Source of the DNA: a virus
Lineage: Duplodnaviria; Heunggongvirae; Uroviricota; Caudoviricetes
Direction: 5' to 3' (one strand)
Virus record (IMG/VR): IMGVR_UViG_2657244940_000006
Length of the DNA stretch: 5,484 bases
The number at the start of each line of letters is the position of its first letter. The stretch's first letter is position 1. This document shows positions 43 to 5,484 of the stretch, in pieces. Made by a program: the position numbers and the translations under genes. The notes beneath the pieces were generated by a model. That model made no database searches. It worked only from the letters and a program-made list of their open reading frames with translations, and was not told where the DNA came from.

Positions 43-567
43 TCAGACCGTGCGCATGGTGCTGATTACCAGCAGCACGGACAATGTCACCTCTGTAGAG
101 CGGTTTCCGCTGGGTGAGTTATGCCTGTTGAAAAAATCAACGATAGCGTGGAGCGCGACTGAGCGCATTGCGTCCTTTTCAAAAAGGATCTCATGGTACG
201 CACCTTTAATTACCAACGGCCGTCCTCCTTCGACAGGATGGCCCGCAGCGGTGCGTAGTTCACAAAAACGGTCGTGCATGCGGTTATCAACAAACTGATG
301 GTTTTCATTGATAATGCGGGACCAGCCATCAACGCCAACCACCGGAACGATGCCGTTCTGCTTGTCAGGGAAGGCGTAAATTTCTTTCGTCCAGGGATTA
401 AGGCCGTACTGGTTGGCGACGATCAACAATGCGATAAATTGCGCATCGCTGGCATCACCTTTAAATGCCGTCTGGCGAAGAGTGGTGATTAGTTCCTGTG
501 GGTCGACAGAATCCATGCCGACACGTTCAGCCAGCTTCCCTGCCAGCGTTGCGAGTGCTGTACTCAT
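43..567 (-). CDS. bet: Bet (Red-beta) single-strand annealing protein, N-terminal ~90 aa only; C-terminal ~85 aa unrelated to lambda Bet (chimeric or truncated bet, possibly a pseudogene)
   Basis: Residues 1-89 (MSTALATLAGKLAERVGMDSVDPQELITTLRQTAFKGDASDAQFIALLIVANQYGLNPWTKEIYAFPDKQNGIVPVVGVDGWSRIINEN) match my recollection of lambda Bet almost exactly; QF at 91-92 also agrees, then similarity is lost (junction about nt 290-300). ORF is 174 aa versus 261 aa for lambda Bet. Start lies 5 nt downstream of the gam stop, as in lambda. AGAGG Shine-Dalgarno-like motif upstream of the ATG. Confidence 0.6.
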   Translation of the reverse strand: MSTALATLAGKLAERVGMDSVDPQELITTLRQTAFKGDASDAQFIALLIVANQYGLNPWTKEIYAFPDKQNGIVPVVGVDGWSRIINENHQFVDNRMHDRFCELRTAAGHPVEGGRPLVIKGAYHEILFEKDAMRSVALHAIVDFFNRHNSPSGNRSTEVTLSVLLVISTMRTV

Positions 568-572
568 CCGTT

Positions 573-869
573 TTATACCTCTGAATCAATATTAATTTGG
601 TGACGGGCGATGGTTTCAGCCATGTAGCGGATGTGTTCTGCCATGCGTTCCTGAAAATCGACATCGTCATCAAATGCACGGGAAATAGCTTTTTTGCTGG
701 CCCCGTGACGTTGCAGATTATCGATGCATAGCGATTCAAACAGGTGTTGGGGCAGACCTTTTTCCAGGTCGTCTGCCAGCTCAGCTTCAGTTTCTTCACG
801 GGCAATTTGCTGGTAGTGTCGTGCCCATGACTGCTCTTCAATGCGATCGGGGATAAGCCAGGCATTCAT
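573..869 (-). CDS. gam: Host-nuclease (RecBCD) inhibitor Gam, short 98-aa form
   Basis: Protein [98 protein letters not shown] is near-identical over its length to the C-terminal 98 aa (GamS form) of lambda Gam as I recall it. Strong RBS GGAGGTGA about 8 nt upstream of the ATG. The ATG overlaps the stop of the upstream 690-aa gene (ATGA at 866..869). Confidence 0.9.
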
Positions 870-2938
870 GATTTATCACCTCCGAAATTTTCAAGCCTGT
901 TGGCAATCATGATGGCGATATCAGGGATTGCTGGCGCTGTGGCTATACATGCGGGGTTGGCGCACAAACCATAGACGGCGGCAATCACGAGCTGTCTTTT
1001 CCAGTCGAGAGTTACTGGCTCAGAATTGGCGTCATCGCCGGACGTATCACTGCCTGGCTCGTTCTGAACAACGGTTTCGCCCTCCTGAGCGGCATCAACA
1101 GAGTTTTCCTGAATGATCTTCTCCTCAGTTTGTGCTGAGTCTTCTCCATCAGCGGCGTCATTTTCTCCAAAAGTTTCTGTGTAAGTGCTATCGCCCATTA
1201 CCGCACTACAGTCAGGGCAGTTACCCCCGCCAGTCTGACCACAGACGCGGCAGTTTTTTTCCAGCTCCGGTTGCGCTACTGGCCCTGGCTGTTGCTCTTC
1301 TGGCCCGTTTTGTTGCGTATCCGGGCTGTTTTGTCCCGCTTCTGGGGCAATTTGTTCCACTTTGGACTGATTCTGGTCCTCAGTGTCGCGAGTCTGGATC
1401 CCCTTCACCCACTTCGGATCAGCAGGGTTACTGATGCCTTCAACGAATTCTCCACGCGAGGCAGCCAGTAATTTGTCGGCATCGACTGGATTTTTTGGGG
1501 GGATGTTTTCCCTGGCTTTATTGAGTTCCTCCCTCAGTTCCTGGTATTTCGTTTCTACAGATGAGACATTTTCCAGTGATTGCGTGTCCTCATTATGTTT
1601 AACTGGAATTTCTTCCACTGATTCAGGCGCTGCCTGTTCATTAGCCATTGTGTCCGATGCTTGTTGCTTTTCTTCATCGCCATGTTTTCCTTCTGCTGTT
1701 CCGCGCTGCGGCATCGGTGCTGATGAGCGACCGCAGGCAATTTCCACGATTTCCGGATCCGGGTTAGCGTGATCGGTTTCGGTCAACACTTTGTTGAGAT
1801 ATTCAGTCACGCGTGCCGGGATGGCCTCAATGCCGATTGGTGCTTCTTTCACGGAAGCCACCACAATGGCGCGGGAATAATCCAGCCCACCGGGCATGGC
1901 GATAAATTTGTCGCGAAAAACAGAAAAGGGCGGCTTATTCTCTGACACGATTTCTTCAACGCGTTTTGCGTGTGCTGGGTGCAGGTTATAAATATCCACA
2001 TCCATTGAACGGGCCAGAACGCCGGTGGCTACATCTCGTGCGAGTGATGTCTTATCATGTTTGAATCCTTCACCACGATCGGTAATATTTCCGCCGCCAG
2101 CGTTAGCACCGGAAGGCGTACGGGTAATGCCTGAAACATAATTTCCGTTCTGCCATTCTTTTGTCAGCAGGCCCTGATCAAGGTAGTCAGTTTTCATCCA
2201 GGTGGAAATGAACTTGTCGAATTCAGCCGGGCTGATGCGATGATTTGCAGAGTGGGGGAATGCTTTCCCTACAGATTCAGCCAGGCGACTAAGGTGATAG
2301 TTCGTCAGTTTATCCAGTTCATGATGCGCGGCGCGCACAGCAGTAAGCAGGCTCTGAAGGTAACTGTCCTCTGTGTCCATCTCCATACGGATCACGTTAT
2401 TGCGTTGTTCTGGTGTGGCATGATGCCGGTATTTTCCATCTTCATCTTTGCTGAATAAGAAGAGGTGAAGGAAGCGATGAGTAAGGCTCAGAGTGGCGAC
2501 GGGAATTTCACACTCAGAACAGTCATCGTCGCTGTCCGGGGATTCGCTTTTCTCCACATCATCCGGAATAGTTCCGTCCAGGTTATCGTTGTCATCGCCA
2601 GCAGTTGTGGCATCTTCACCGTTGATGTTGTCATCGAAGGGGATAGCCATCATGGTGATGCCATCGTTACCGCCTTTTTCATAGCGGTTGCAGAATTCAG
2701 TATCAAACACGCCTTCCGGTGGAAGGTCATTCACAACGGGTAAATGGACGCGGATGGGTTTTTTAAAATCCTCTTCGTCAAATCCGGCATCGTCCATTGC
2801 AGCAACACCGCGTGATATTGCAACCGATAATTTTTTTGCTGTGCGCCAGTAAAAACCACCTTTAATCCCAAGGCGTTTTCTGACTTTGTCATTTTTGGCT
2901 TCGTAATATAGTGCAATTTCTTCTTTATCAGCGTTCAT
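866..2938 (-). CDS. Large (690 aa) highly acidic hypothetical protein with CxxC-x7-CxxC zinc-ribbon-like motif and hydrophobic C-terminal segment; occupies the kil / ydfE position between ydfD and gam
   Basis: Uninterrupted 2073-nt ORF; ATG at 2936..2938 preceded by GAGG about 7 nt upstream; stop overlaps gam start. Composition: D/E-rich low-complexity tracts (aa ~100-145 and ~415-645), a central less biased segment (aa ~145-400), Cys563-x2-Cys566-x7-Cys574-x2-Cys577 (nt 1208..1252), a further CxxC at aa 140-143, and a hydrophobic stretch aa ~648-680. No family recognised from memory. Confidence 0.8.
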
Positions 2939-3030
2939 TGATAAACCTCATAACCATTTTAAGGATGAACAAATTCCTGCCATTGCTGGCATTTTTAATC
3001 CGTTGGTATGGCGTTAATATGGCTGGCGGG

Positions 3031-3219
3031 TTATCCAGCCGGTGTTTCGTTATTCAGGTACAGCGATACTTTTTTTAACGGGAGGCATTCACCGGGGATT
3101 TTTTGTTCGTCCCTTACCTGAATGCAGGATGACTTACTGTCATAAATTCCGGTAATCACATTCTGCGGCTCACCCGTTATAAGAAAAACGGTCATTATCA
3201 GTGCAAACGCTGAAGTCAC
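3031..3219 (-). CDS. ydfD: YdfD-like small membrane (lysis-associated) protein, 62 aa
   Basis: Immediately downstream of dicB with a 4-nt overlap (GTGA; GTG start at 3217..3219, GGAG about 9 nt upstream). Hydrophobic N-terminus (MTSAFALIMTVFLITG) consistent with a single transmembrane helix. Size and position match the K-12 Qin dicB-ydfD arrangement. The alternative ATG at 3193..3195 lacks an RBS. Confidence 0.55.
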   Translation of the reverse strand: MTSAFALIMTVFLITGEPQNVITGIYDSKSSCIQVRDEQKIPGECLPLKKVSLYLNNETPAG

Positions 3220-3404
3220 TGCTGTTCTCCGATAATACCAAGTTCAAGAAGGGCAATTCTGGAAAGTATGGAATTATCATTGAGAAGATAAGGTTCATAT
3301 TTTCTCATCTTAATGGCATCTTCAGTAAACTCCCGGTTACTGAGCAGAACTCCAATATCAAAACAACCTTCAGACGTATTAACGTTTGGTAATAACGTTT
3401 CCAT
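3216..3404 (-). CDS. dicB: Cell division inhibitor DicB homolog, 62 aa
   Basis: Protein METLLPNVNTSEGCFDIGVLLSNREFTEDAIKMRKYEPYLLNDNSILSRIALLELGIIGEQQ; the N-terminal ~33 aa closely match my recollection of K-12 DicB (MKTLLPNVNTSEGCFEIGV...TEDAI), the C-terminal third diverges. RBS GAGGA 7 nt upstream of the ATG at 3402..3404. The supplied ORF 3216..3551 is an artefactual N-terminal extension running through the dicF-dicB spacer. Confidence 0.85.
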   Translation of the reverse strand: METLLPNVNTSEGCFDIGVLLSNREFTEDAIKMRKYEPYLLNDNSILSRIALLELGIIGEQQ

Positions 3405-3575
3405 TATCGCGTCCTCAACAATGAATTTTGTGATGCAGTGCCTGGTGCCTCCAGGTGACGTTAACCAGTTAACAACTAACGCCGGGTCAGGGGACGATGA
3501 CTTTCCGTGACATCCTGTCGGTTTAACTGTTCCGCGTGCGCATAGCCGCATTCACCGCATCACAAAATTCACTTT

Positions 3576-3616
3576 AAAAAGGGCGGACATCAGCAATCGG
3601 CAAACCGATGTCCGCC
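3576..3616 (-). terminator. Rho-independent terminator hairpin (10-bp perfect stem GGCGGACAUC / GAUGUCCGCC, 15-nt loop, then C + U5) at the DicF-like RNA 3' end
   Basis: Seen directly: plus-strand 3582..3591 ggcggacatc and 3607..3616 gatgtccgcc are reverse complements; the T-run on the minus strand corresponds to plus-strand a-run 3576..3580. On the plus strand the hairpin is not followed by a T-run, so termination is orientation-specific. Confidence 0.65.
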
Positions 3617-3632
3617 AAGGGCTACACACAGC
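3576..3632 (-). ncRNA. dicF: DicF-like small RNA (divergent variant); 3' end defined by an intrinsic terminator; 5' end approximate
   Basis: Minus-strand sequence ...GUGUGUAGCCCUUGGCGGACAUCGGUUUGCCGAUUGCUGAUGUCCGCCCUUUUU, followed by AAAGTGAATTTTGTGATG...GGTGAATGCGGCT...GCGCACGCGGAACAG, which matches the dicF-dicB spacer of K-12 as I recall it. The RNA body keeps the UUGGCGG...CCGCCCUUUUU framework of DicF but differs internally. Lies about 170 nt upstream of dicB, as in Qin. Confidence 0.5.
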
Positions 3633-3699
3633 AATGTTGTTATTCACAACCGGAAGCGCACGGTCGAAGAAATCTAACGACAAGCCTTCAATGGGAAAG

Positions 3700-3855
3700 A
3701 GTCTTCGCCGTGCACTTTCGTGTTGTACCCTGGCTTTCAGGGTAATGTCTGTTCAGTAAACTGAGAGTGCCGGAACTTACCCGTGTCCGGCGCACGATCT
3801 CCACCTCACCCGTGGAGAACTCCTCAACTACAAACCCCGTAAGGAGAGTGAGTTT
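3700..3855 (+). promoter_or_regulatory. Putative promoter and structured 5' leader of the plus-strand small gene (two hairpins 3767..3793 and 3798..3818 upstream of the RBS)
   Basis: Seen in sequence: inverted repeats gtgccgga/tccggcgc (8-bp stem with one G-U, 11-nt loop) and tctccac/gtggaga (7-bp stem, 7-nt loop) followed by AAGGAGAG. Only weak sigma70-like hexamers (TTGTAC ... TAATGT with 14-nt spacing, about 3723..3748). Promoter assignment is speculative. Confidence 0.25.
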
Positions 3856-4424: not shown

Positions 4425-4730
4425 TCAGGCGGTCAGCTCTTTAAGCTTCTGAACTGCTTTATTCATTTCATCCATACAGTCGATGAATTCGTCCAGTTTA
4501 AGCTGCATTTTTCCGGCGGCCTGAAGAATTTCAAGTTTTAAGGGCGCAAGTTTTTTGTTGAATGCATCATCTTCCTGGCGTTTTTTCTCCGCAATTTCGG
4601 CGGCTTTCAGCAATTCTTCAGCCTGTTTTCTGAGTATTTCTGGTGAAGGTGAAACTGCTTTGAGGTTATTCATTTCAGGTTCCTGTTGTTGCAGAATTAA
4701 TTTGTTGCATTCTCTGCGTGAGCGTTTCAT
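4425..4730 (-). CDS. Hypothetical coiled-coil-like protein (101 aa)
   Basis: ATG at 4728..4730 overlaps the stop of the upstream gene (ATGA at 4727..4730), suggesting translational coupling. Sequence rich in K/E/A/L/Q heptad-like segments (EILRKQAEELLKAAEIAEKKRQ...). Alternative internal ATG at 4671..4673 with AGGA upstream. Confidence 0.6.
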   Translation of the reverse strand: MKRSRRECNKLILQQQEPEMNNLKAVSPSPEILRKQAEELLKAAEIAEKKRQEDDAFNKKLAPLKLEILQAAGKMQLKLDEFIDCMDEMNKAVQKLKELTA

Positions 4731-5137
4731 TGCAGATTCGCACTTCTTGCAATAAATGGCTCTCCCGTCACGCTTGCTGGCATCTGAATAAAAATCATTG
4801 ACTGATTTTGTCTGCCCGCATCTGGTACATAATTTTGATTGAAGGTCCTTAATGATTGTGACGTTTCCTTCCCGCTTGGGATATCCATATTTTTGTGGCG
4901 TAAAAAGGTTACTCCGTTACCAGAACCTTCTTTTCTGACCTTAAATACAATGATGCTTTCCCGTTTATCGATAAAATCGATGAGCTGGTTTCTCTCCTTT
5001 CCTGACAGTTCGGCAAATGTCTTAACTTTTTTAGTAACCTCAGTAAGGCGAACGCCGTCAGGCATTTTTTCAACGAAGTTTTTAATCTCTGCAAGCGGAC
5101 GCCATAATTTTTGCGGCAAAACTGAAGGCGTGGTCAT
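4727..5137 (-). CDS. Hypothetical early protein (136 aa from ATG at 5135..5137)
   Basis: The supplied ORF starts at TTG 5138..5140; the adjacent ATG at 5135..5137 has a strong RBS GAGGTGA about 5 nt upstream and lies 3 nt after the upstream gene stop (5141..5143). No family recognised. Confidence 0.6.
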   Translation of the reverse strand: MTTPSVLPQKLWRPLAEIKNFVEKMPDGVRLTEVTKKVKTFAELSGKERNQLIDFIDKRESIIVFKVRKEGSGNGVTFLRHKNMDIPSGKETSQSLRTFNQNYVPDAGRQNQSMIFIQMPASVTGEPFIARSANLQ

Positions 5138-5140
5138 CAA

Positions 5141-5484
5141 TCACCTCGCCGTCAGTTGTTTTGATTTCCGGTAGCCTGCCGCGTAAATGGCTACGTTTGG
5201 AAGACATACACCAGTTTCTGGTTGCTTATGTCCAAACTCATTCGCGTACACAATGGCTGCTCGCTCCAGATTGCGTCTGTATTCTTTCTGTTGCCAGATC
5301 ACGTCCTGTGCCATGAACTTAATTGGCTTAGCGTCTTCTATGCGCTCAGGCGTTTCGTGAGTACCTTTAGCCTGAATCTGCGCTCTGCTTAGAGTAGGGC
5401 GGTGTAATACTTCTGAACTTATTGCTTCTTCGCGGGCCAGCACGCCGTTAGCTAATGCCTTTGCCTTTAAACGCACACGACGAT
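5141..5484 (-). CDS. Hypothetical protein, 5'-truncated by the window edge (C-terminal >=111 aa)
   Basis: Reading frame is open to the window end at 5484; the supplied start at 5474..5476 is a GTG and probably internal. Stop at 5141..5143 is immediately followed by the RBS of the next gene. Confidence 0.5.
   Translation of the reverse strand, partial: RRVRLKAKALANGVLAREEAISSEVLHRPTLSRAQIQAKGTHETPERIEDAKPIKFMAQDVIWQQKEYRRNLERAAIVYANEFGHKQPETGVCLPNVAIYAAGYRKSKQLTAR

Follow-up and report, generated by a model that had tools for sequence, protein, structure and literature searches.

The window, by which is meant the whole stretch of 5,484 nucleotides of viral DNA analysed here, most probably carries a normal and intact dicB-ydfD pair, in which the divergent tail of DicB is one of two ancient C-terminal modules that each travel with their own YdfD, and which has replaced a kil cassette. 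The divergent tail itself is not new; it is a frequent and already annotated allele that results from ordinary lambdoid mosaicism. The window represents the early-left operon of an N-type lambdoid prophage, which is transcribed from right to left in the order N, a split phrog_2539 gene, a phrog_2982 gene, a small RNA (sRNA) gene, a leader, dicB, the ydfD-like gene, a RecE-family gene (690 aa), gam, and bet. The features of the pair and its surroundings are collected in Table 1.

Table 1. Coordinates of the dicB-ydfD pair, its parts, and the associated elements (positions in the window unless another locus is named).
Feature	Position	Strand	Remarks
KilS-like small RNA gene with intrinsic terminator	3576..3661	-	position of DicF in Qin
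Conserved leader, from sRNA terminator to dicB	3405..3575	-	alignment of 18 distinct leaders and Rac
GAGGA, putative Shine-Dalgarno of dicB	3412..3416	-	7 nt before ATG
dicB, window-type allele, ending …RKYEPYLLNDNSILSRIALLELGIIGEQQ	3216..3404	-	62 aa; cell-division inhibitor gene, by homology
DicB N-terminal module, codons 1-35	3300..3404	-	
Conserved DNA stretch FTEDAIKMRK, last ten N-module codons (26-35)	3300-3329	-	N/C recombination site
DicB C-terminal module, window type, codons 36-62	3219..3299	-	
GGAG, putative Shine-Dalgarno of ydfD-like gene	3227..3230	-	inside dicB 3′ end, 7 nt before GTG
GTGA, ydfD-like GTG start / dicB TGA stop overlap	3216..3219	-	direct sequence reading
ydfD-like gene (DUF1482)	3031..3219	-	62 aa, GTG start
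Imported block	2712..3475	-	first ~70 codons of RecE-like gene, ydfD-like gene, dicB, part of leader
Rac-type kil and 128-aa hypothetical gene	L003 4166-4969; L004 same coordinates		alternative to window 2950-3419

Both genes of the pair belong to recognized protein families. The dicB product matches the Pfam DicB model (PF05358) over residues 1–62 of 62 with an E value of 3.7e-38 and 129.5 bits (cutoff 27), and it scores 111 bits against NCBIfam NF049927, for which the curated cutoff is 100. The product of the downstream gene matches Pfam DUF1482 (PF07358) at an E value of 3.6e-14 and 52.8 bits (gathering score 25) as well as phrog_1092 at an E value of 1.7e-32; none of the NCBIfam models matched it. 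An initial annotation, made from the DNA letters, had described a dicB-ydfD pair in which the second gene begins with a GTG that overlaps the dicB stop codon. Its coordinates and gene calls are exact: the plus strand at 3216–3219 reads tcac, which corresponds to GTGA on the coding strand, and both ORFs are intact. The similarity to YdfD that it assigned to 3031..3219 is borne out by the PF07358 match and by a BLASTP identity of 45% to K-12 YdfD (E 6e-21). The GGAG and GAGGA motifs listed in Table 1 would serve as the ribosome-binding sites of the two genes. In addition, the N-terminal segment of the YdfD-like protein, MTSAFALIMTVFLIT, is hydrophobic (mean Kyte-Doolittle value 2.06, against 2.11 in K-12), and residues C32 and C45 align with the cysteines of K-12 YdfD, the conservation of which has been noted previously (PMC8835842).

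Some database records depart from this two-gene arrangement. Two entries (P0099 and P0101) present DicB and DUF1482 fused into one ORF, and phrog_24763 consists of an upstream extension followed by the DicB N-module alone (residues 1–35). These are probably frameshifted or truncated copies.

For the comparison with K-12, the Qin prophage was read from NC_000913, and its dicB and ydfD genes were translated. The K-12 DicB sequence given in the initial annotation is an exact match to this translation. The statement that the N-terminal part of DicB is conserved and the C-terminal part divergent also stands: 27 of the 35 residues at positions 1–35 are identical to K-12, compared to 11 of the 27 residues at positions 36–62, with an overall identity of 61%. 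At the DNA level, identity is 87% over codons 1–35 and 46% over codons 36–62, and at third codon positions it is 80% and 22%, respectively. Synonymous divergence (pS) amounts to 0.22 in the 5′ part of the gene and 0.76 in the 3′ part, where alone it is saturated. The DNA alignment is nearly identical from the sRNA terminator through the leader to codon 35 of dicB, after which identity drops sharply; it stays low over the remainder of dicB and the whole of ydfD and returns just upstream of the gene that follows ydfD. The abruptness of this drop, together with the unequal synonymous divergence, indicates a joint at which recombination brought together sequences that differ greatly in age. Relaxed selection on the DicB tail would not produce this pattern. 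The conservation of the 5′ half of dicB could also reflect constraint at the RNA level, but the leader, which is non-coding, and the synonymous sites are conserved to an equal degree, so recent recombination is the simpler explanation.

The tails of DicB fall into two classes when 65 full-length family members are aligned. Tails of the K-12 class read ...[QH]ERELLNKICI[VL]SMLARLR..., and tails of the window class read ...YEPYLLNDNSILSRIALL.LGI[IF]G.... Residues E37, L40, L41, I46, S48, and A51 are invariant or nearly so in both classes, from which it follows that the two tails are homologous. These conserved residues include hydrophobic positions of the predicted C-terminal helices (40, 41, 46, and 51). 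Natural recombinants exist in both directions, with a K-12 N-half joined to a window tail in P0019, P0021, and P0026, and a window N-half joined to a K-12 tail in P0065, P0066, and P0068. Their joint lies in the conserved FTEDAI..RK stretch, which occupies 3300–3329 in the window.

The type of the DicB tail is linked to the type of YdfD in all loci in which both genes are readable (88 of 88), in a sample that is biased towards the window type. Across the 88 dicB loci, the sequence of the four-base overlap goes with the last two residues of DicB, being GTGA after QQ and ATGA after RQ. The ydfD-like ORF is truncated or has lost its start codon in about 10 of these 88 loci. Among 15 window-type dicB alleles, pN/pS over codons 36–62 is 0.15, and among 17 intact ydfD-like alleles it is 0.27, both values being drawn from pairwise comparisons that are non-independent. 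These ratios argue that purifying selection maintains both the window-type C-module and the ydfD-like gene. The charge of the tail varies inside the window-type lineage, as in alleles ending ...LLKLGIFGEWR.

The pair in the window has close and numerous relatives. Its DicB is 100% identical to WP_000449172.1, which is annotated as DicB, of E. coli O103:H2 str. 12009, and its YdfD-like protein is one residue apart from WP_001369006.1 (DUF1482) of the same strain, with D27 here and Y27 there. PPompW and Stx2a prophage records belong, like O103:H2 12009, to the closest known counterparts. A DicB identical to that of the window is encoded by 12 deposited records of phages or prophages and by at least 33 contigs of IMG/VR. 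The window-type dicB-ydfD block is present in 1020, and the K-12-type block in 3982, of the 5426 complete E. coli genomes; 4219 of them have any dicB match to the window query. This means that at least 783 genomes (3982 + 1020 − 4219) carry both block types. Homologues named as Salmonella and Citrobacter have the window-type DicB tail. A scan of one genome per species returned 7 loci, all of them in Escherichia or Shigella except for one metagenome bin labelled Veillonella, so the DicB family is narrow.

The DNA surrounding the pair has a different history from the pair itself. The imported block (Table 1) shows 3 differences from the finished genome of O103:H2 12009, or 99.6% identity, and its flanks are 97–99% identical to phage PhiR5_2 and to the prophage of strain G1/2, which are the closest relatives. 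In the slot that is occupied by ydfD and dicB in the window, these relatives have a 128-aa hypothetical gene and a Rac-type kil. The intervals in which the crossovers fall are 2712–2734, inside the RecE-like gene, and 3448–3475, in the shared leader. In the related phage, neither the kil product nor the 128-aa protein has a Pfam model. Both of the alternative cassettes, kil and dicB-ydfD, encode small division inhibitors. It thus appears, from these alignments, that a PhiR5_2-like phage exchanged its kil cassette for a block of about 750 bases by homologous recombination in shared flanks. More generally, homologous recombination in dicB codons 26–35 and in the shared leader most probably joins such blocks to different N-halves and phage backbones. 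An independent contig, IMGVR_UViG_2667527898_000004, matches window 288–3647 at 99.94%, which means that an artefact in this window does not account for the arrangement. Among the complete E. coli genomes in the collection, none has window 3230–3800 contiguous at high identity.

Other parts of the window show irregularities of their own. At the left end, 1–91 is a 98.9% match to a phage tail-fibre gene, 89–291 is a 99.5% match to the 3′ end of the chromosomal pldB gene, and bet is cut off near position 288 after about 93 codons. The junction of pldB and bet is absent from IMG/VR, and the near-identical contig L112 continues otherwise; this patchwork over 1–291 could be a rearrangement or an assembly chimera. 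The phrog_2539 gene (237 aa; 4425–5140, minus strand) has a 1-base deletion in an A-run near 4894, relative to strain G1/2 and PhiR5_2, which splits it into ORFs of 137 and 101 aa and makes it either a frameshifted pseudogene or the product of a homopolymer sequencing error. The RecE-family protein (866–2938, minus strand) covers positions 1–598 of the 877-position exonuclease VIII model and scores 746 bits against a cutoff of 1269. Since its coverage stops at model position 598, it appears to lack the nuclease part at the C-terminus. Beside it lie the genes of Gam and Bet, and related phages also have lambda Exo. The N antiterminator gene (5141–5484, minus strand) runs off the right end of the window, and the GTG-start ORF listed there comprises the C-terminal 111 residues of a 127-aa N, as in PhiR5_2.

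Upstream of dicB, the sRNA gene resembles KilS, an Hfq-associated sRNA derived from the kilR 5′ UTR of Rac (b4833; PMC8175672). It has 77 positions identical to the 98-nt KilS of K-12, its 5′ 45 nucleotides are about 90% identical to KilS, the terminator stem is common to both, and the distance from each to the division-inhibitor gene downstream is the same. DicF (RF00039) was considered as an alternative identity and rejected, as the segment 3581–3630, with 29.5 bits, falls short of the gathering score of 48, compared to 72–77 bits in Rfam for the true DicF of K-12, O103, and Shigella. Moreover, the 5′ single-stranded UUUCUGGUGAC segment of DicF is absent from the window sRNA. Judged by its sequence, the element is a KilS homologue and not DicF. 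Most dicB loci have a canonical DicF upstream; among the loci with enough upstream sequence, the window and the near-identical contig L112 are the only ones in which a KilS-like element precedes dicB. A search of the whole window against Rfam at an E value of 1 or less returned no family beyond sub-threshold DicF and STnc100. When RNAs from the DicF position were paired with the ftsZ translation start using RNAduplex, true DicF itself reached a z of only −1.2 relative to shuffles.

Between this sRNA and dicB lies a leader of about 170 nt that is common to dicB loci, to the kil loci of PhiR5_2-like phages, and to Rac kilR (loci L001, L002, L003, L005, L006, L010, and L131). Its conserved core is a hairpin, CCUGGAGGCACCAGG. 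The leader gives a weak match to Rfam STnc100 at every locus checked, with scores of 27–38 bits against a gathering score of 47. A simple promoter and terminator scan found no internal dicB promoter, with a count of sites not above that in shuffles.

The AlphaFold2 model of the window DicB (pLDDT 78, pTM 0.55) contains helices at residues 11–21, 24–36, 38–42, and 46–54, and its last 8 residues are of low confidence or disordered. In agreement with this, K-12 DicB has been found not to need its last 8 residues (PMC4967827). The model of the recombinant P0066, in which the window N-half is joined to a K-12 tail, has one continuous helix from 24 to 55; the pTM of this model is only 0.30, so the difference between a broken and a long helix is not reliable. 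Pro38 may be the cause of the difference between the two models. A search of PDB sequences gave no meaningful match for either DicB or the YdfD-like protein, and Foldseek, run with the DicB model on the PDB, returned nothing with an E value below 1.

It has been established that the N-terminus of K-12 DicB and residue L5 are essential, that the substitutions K2A, K2G, and K2R are tolerated, that truncations of the last 12 to 20 residues weaken the protein, and that MinC binding tracks the N-terminal 14 residues (PMC4967827). K-12 DicB also inhibits ManYZ (PMC6832061). K-12 YdfD is an IspG-binding protein that lyses cells, and both DicB and SulA protect against this lysis (PMC8835842). The N-terminus of the window DicB, METLLPNVNTSEGCF, contains L5 and has E at position 2, which is outside the published set of substitutions. 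A literature search for tests of a non-K-12 DicB tail or allele found none. By homology, the DicB and the YdfD-like protein of the window would be equivalent to their K-12 counterparts.

If this is so, the action of the block can be outlined as follows. Read-through of the sRNA terminator, mediated by N, would precede translation of dicB and the ydfD-like gene as a coupled pair through the GTGA overlap. DicB would then bind MinC and send it to the division ring, where division would stop, and it would also block the ManYZ-dependent entry of phage DNA. The YdfD-like protein, small and with a hydrophobic N-terminus, would lyse dividing cells, via IspG as reported for K-12, and this lysis would be masked for as long as DicB blocks division.

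The window C-module might instead, as the initial annotation suggested for partner specificity, confer on DicB a different partner specificity or strength, for example in MinC affinity, in ZipA-dependent targeting, or towards inner-membrane receptors other than ManYZ. The two C-modules are deeply diverged, that of the window is under purifying selection in its own lineage, residues 36–62 carry a net charge of −3 compared to +3 in K-12, and only the window type has Pro38; moreover, the loss of 12 to 20 residues weakens K-12 DicB, and the genomes with both block types are compatible with non-redundancy. Such co-occurrence is expected in any case, however, with Qin close to fixation in E. coli and the window type residing on additional prophages. 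The hydrophobic positions of the C-terminal helices are kept between types, charge varies within the window-type lineage, and K-12 DicB can do without its last 8 residues, while its binding to MinC follows the N-terminal 14. Furthermore, the tail belongs to a pair of homologous alleles that are both widespread, and RefSeq and phage records already contain the identical protein. A change of specificity is therefore considered rather unlikely. The same doubt attaches to its fuller form, in which the N-module would engage MinC and the two C-modules, each inherited with its own YdfD, would set specificity for the division-ring anchor or for inner-membrane phage receptors. If it were true, prophages with different DicB C-modules would give their hosts different spectra of superinfection exclusion.

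The linkage of tail and YdfD types could also be taken to mean that the DicB C-module and YdfD are co-adapted partners, held together by selection and not by adjacency alone. The linkage holds in every readable locus, the two genes are presumably translationally coupled through their overlap, and coexpression of DicB prevents YdfD lysis in K-12 (PMC8835842). However, fewer than 100 bases separate the linked features, and these bases include no conserved DNA in which a crossover could occur, so linkage is expected without selection, and the sample is heavily biased to the window type. Protection by SulA implies that the effect operates through division arrest and not through contact between DicB and YdfD, and co-adaptation is very unlikely. 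Still more remote is the suggestion that the divergent tail, or else the ydfD-like ORF, is a remnant in decay, or that an assembly artefact produced the arrangement. The patchwork of unrelated fragments at 1–291, the degraded ydfD-like ORFs of some loci, and the lack of a complete E. coli genome with 3230–3800 contiguous would be in keeping with it. Yet both ORFs are intact and have putative ribosome-binding sites, the pN/pS values are low (0.15 and 0.27), the imported block recurs in a finished genome, and the independent contig reproduces the arrangement, such that for 288–3647 this possibility is largely refuted. The preferred explanation remains that of an intact pair with one of two ancient C-modules, brought in at the expense of kil.

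As a by-product, DicB can now be described as a conserved N-module followed by one of two deep C-terminal allele classes. Functional work on DicB has so far been confined to the K-12 class, and the natural swaps of the C-module offer a cheap route for studying the contacts of DicB with MinC, ZipA, and ManYZ. The window also shows dicB-ydfD and kil to be interchangeable cassettes behind one leader and one sRNA position.

The nearest characterized counterpart of the window DicB is that of K-12 Qin (b1575; PF05358, NF049927), which is likewise 62 aa long with a full-length family match. The N-terminal 35 residues of the two proteins are 77% identical, with L5 and the NVNTSEGCF motif in common. 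In both cases, dicB is followed by ydfD with a 4-base start/stop overlap (ATGA in K-12, GTGA here), is preceded by the same leader, and belongs to a lambdoid early-left operon. The proteins differ in residues 36–62, which are only 41% identical (16 of 27 differ) and of opposite net charge, in the potentially helix-breaking Pro38 of the window type, and at position 2, which is E here and K in K-12. In addition, the sRNA upstream is of the KilS type here and not DicF, and the operon here includes the N antiterminator, while the Qin context is one of DicA/DicC only. K-12 YdfD (b1576; DUF1482, PF07358) has 63 aa compared to 62 aa here, and shares with the window protein, besides the 45% identity given above, the hydrophobic N-terminus, both cysteines, the EQKIPG.C motif, and the position and overlap with dicB. 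It differs in its ATG start, where the window has GTG, and in the net charge of the part from residue 19 to the end, which is −3 in K-12 and 0 here.

Two further systems share the block or its slot. The copy of the block in O103:H2 12009 belongs to a prophage adjoining rspAB and is preceded by a canonical DicF (77 bits); that in the window is preceded by a KilS-like RNA and has a backbone of the PhiR5_2-like type. The same slot, with the same leader and a KilS-type RNA in front of it, holds the kilR cassette in Rac and in PhiR5_2-like phages, and this cassette too encodes a small division inhibitor. However, KilR is unrelated to DicB in sequence, is not followed by a ydfD-like gene, and, according to record annotation and published work, does not require MinC for its action on FtsZ.
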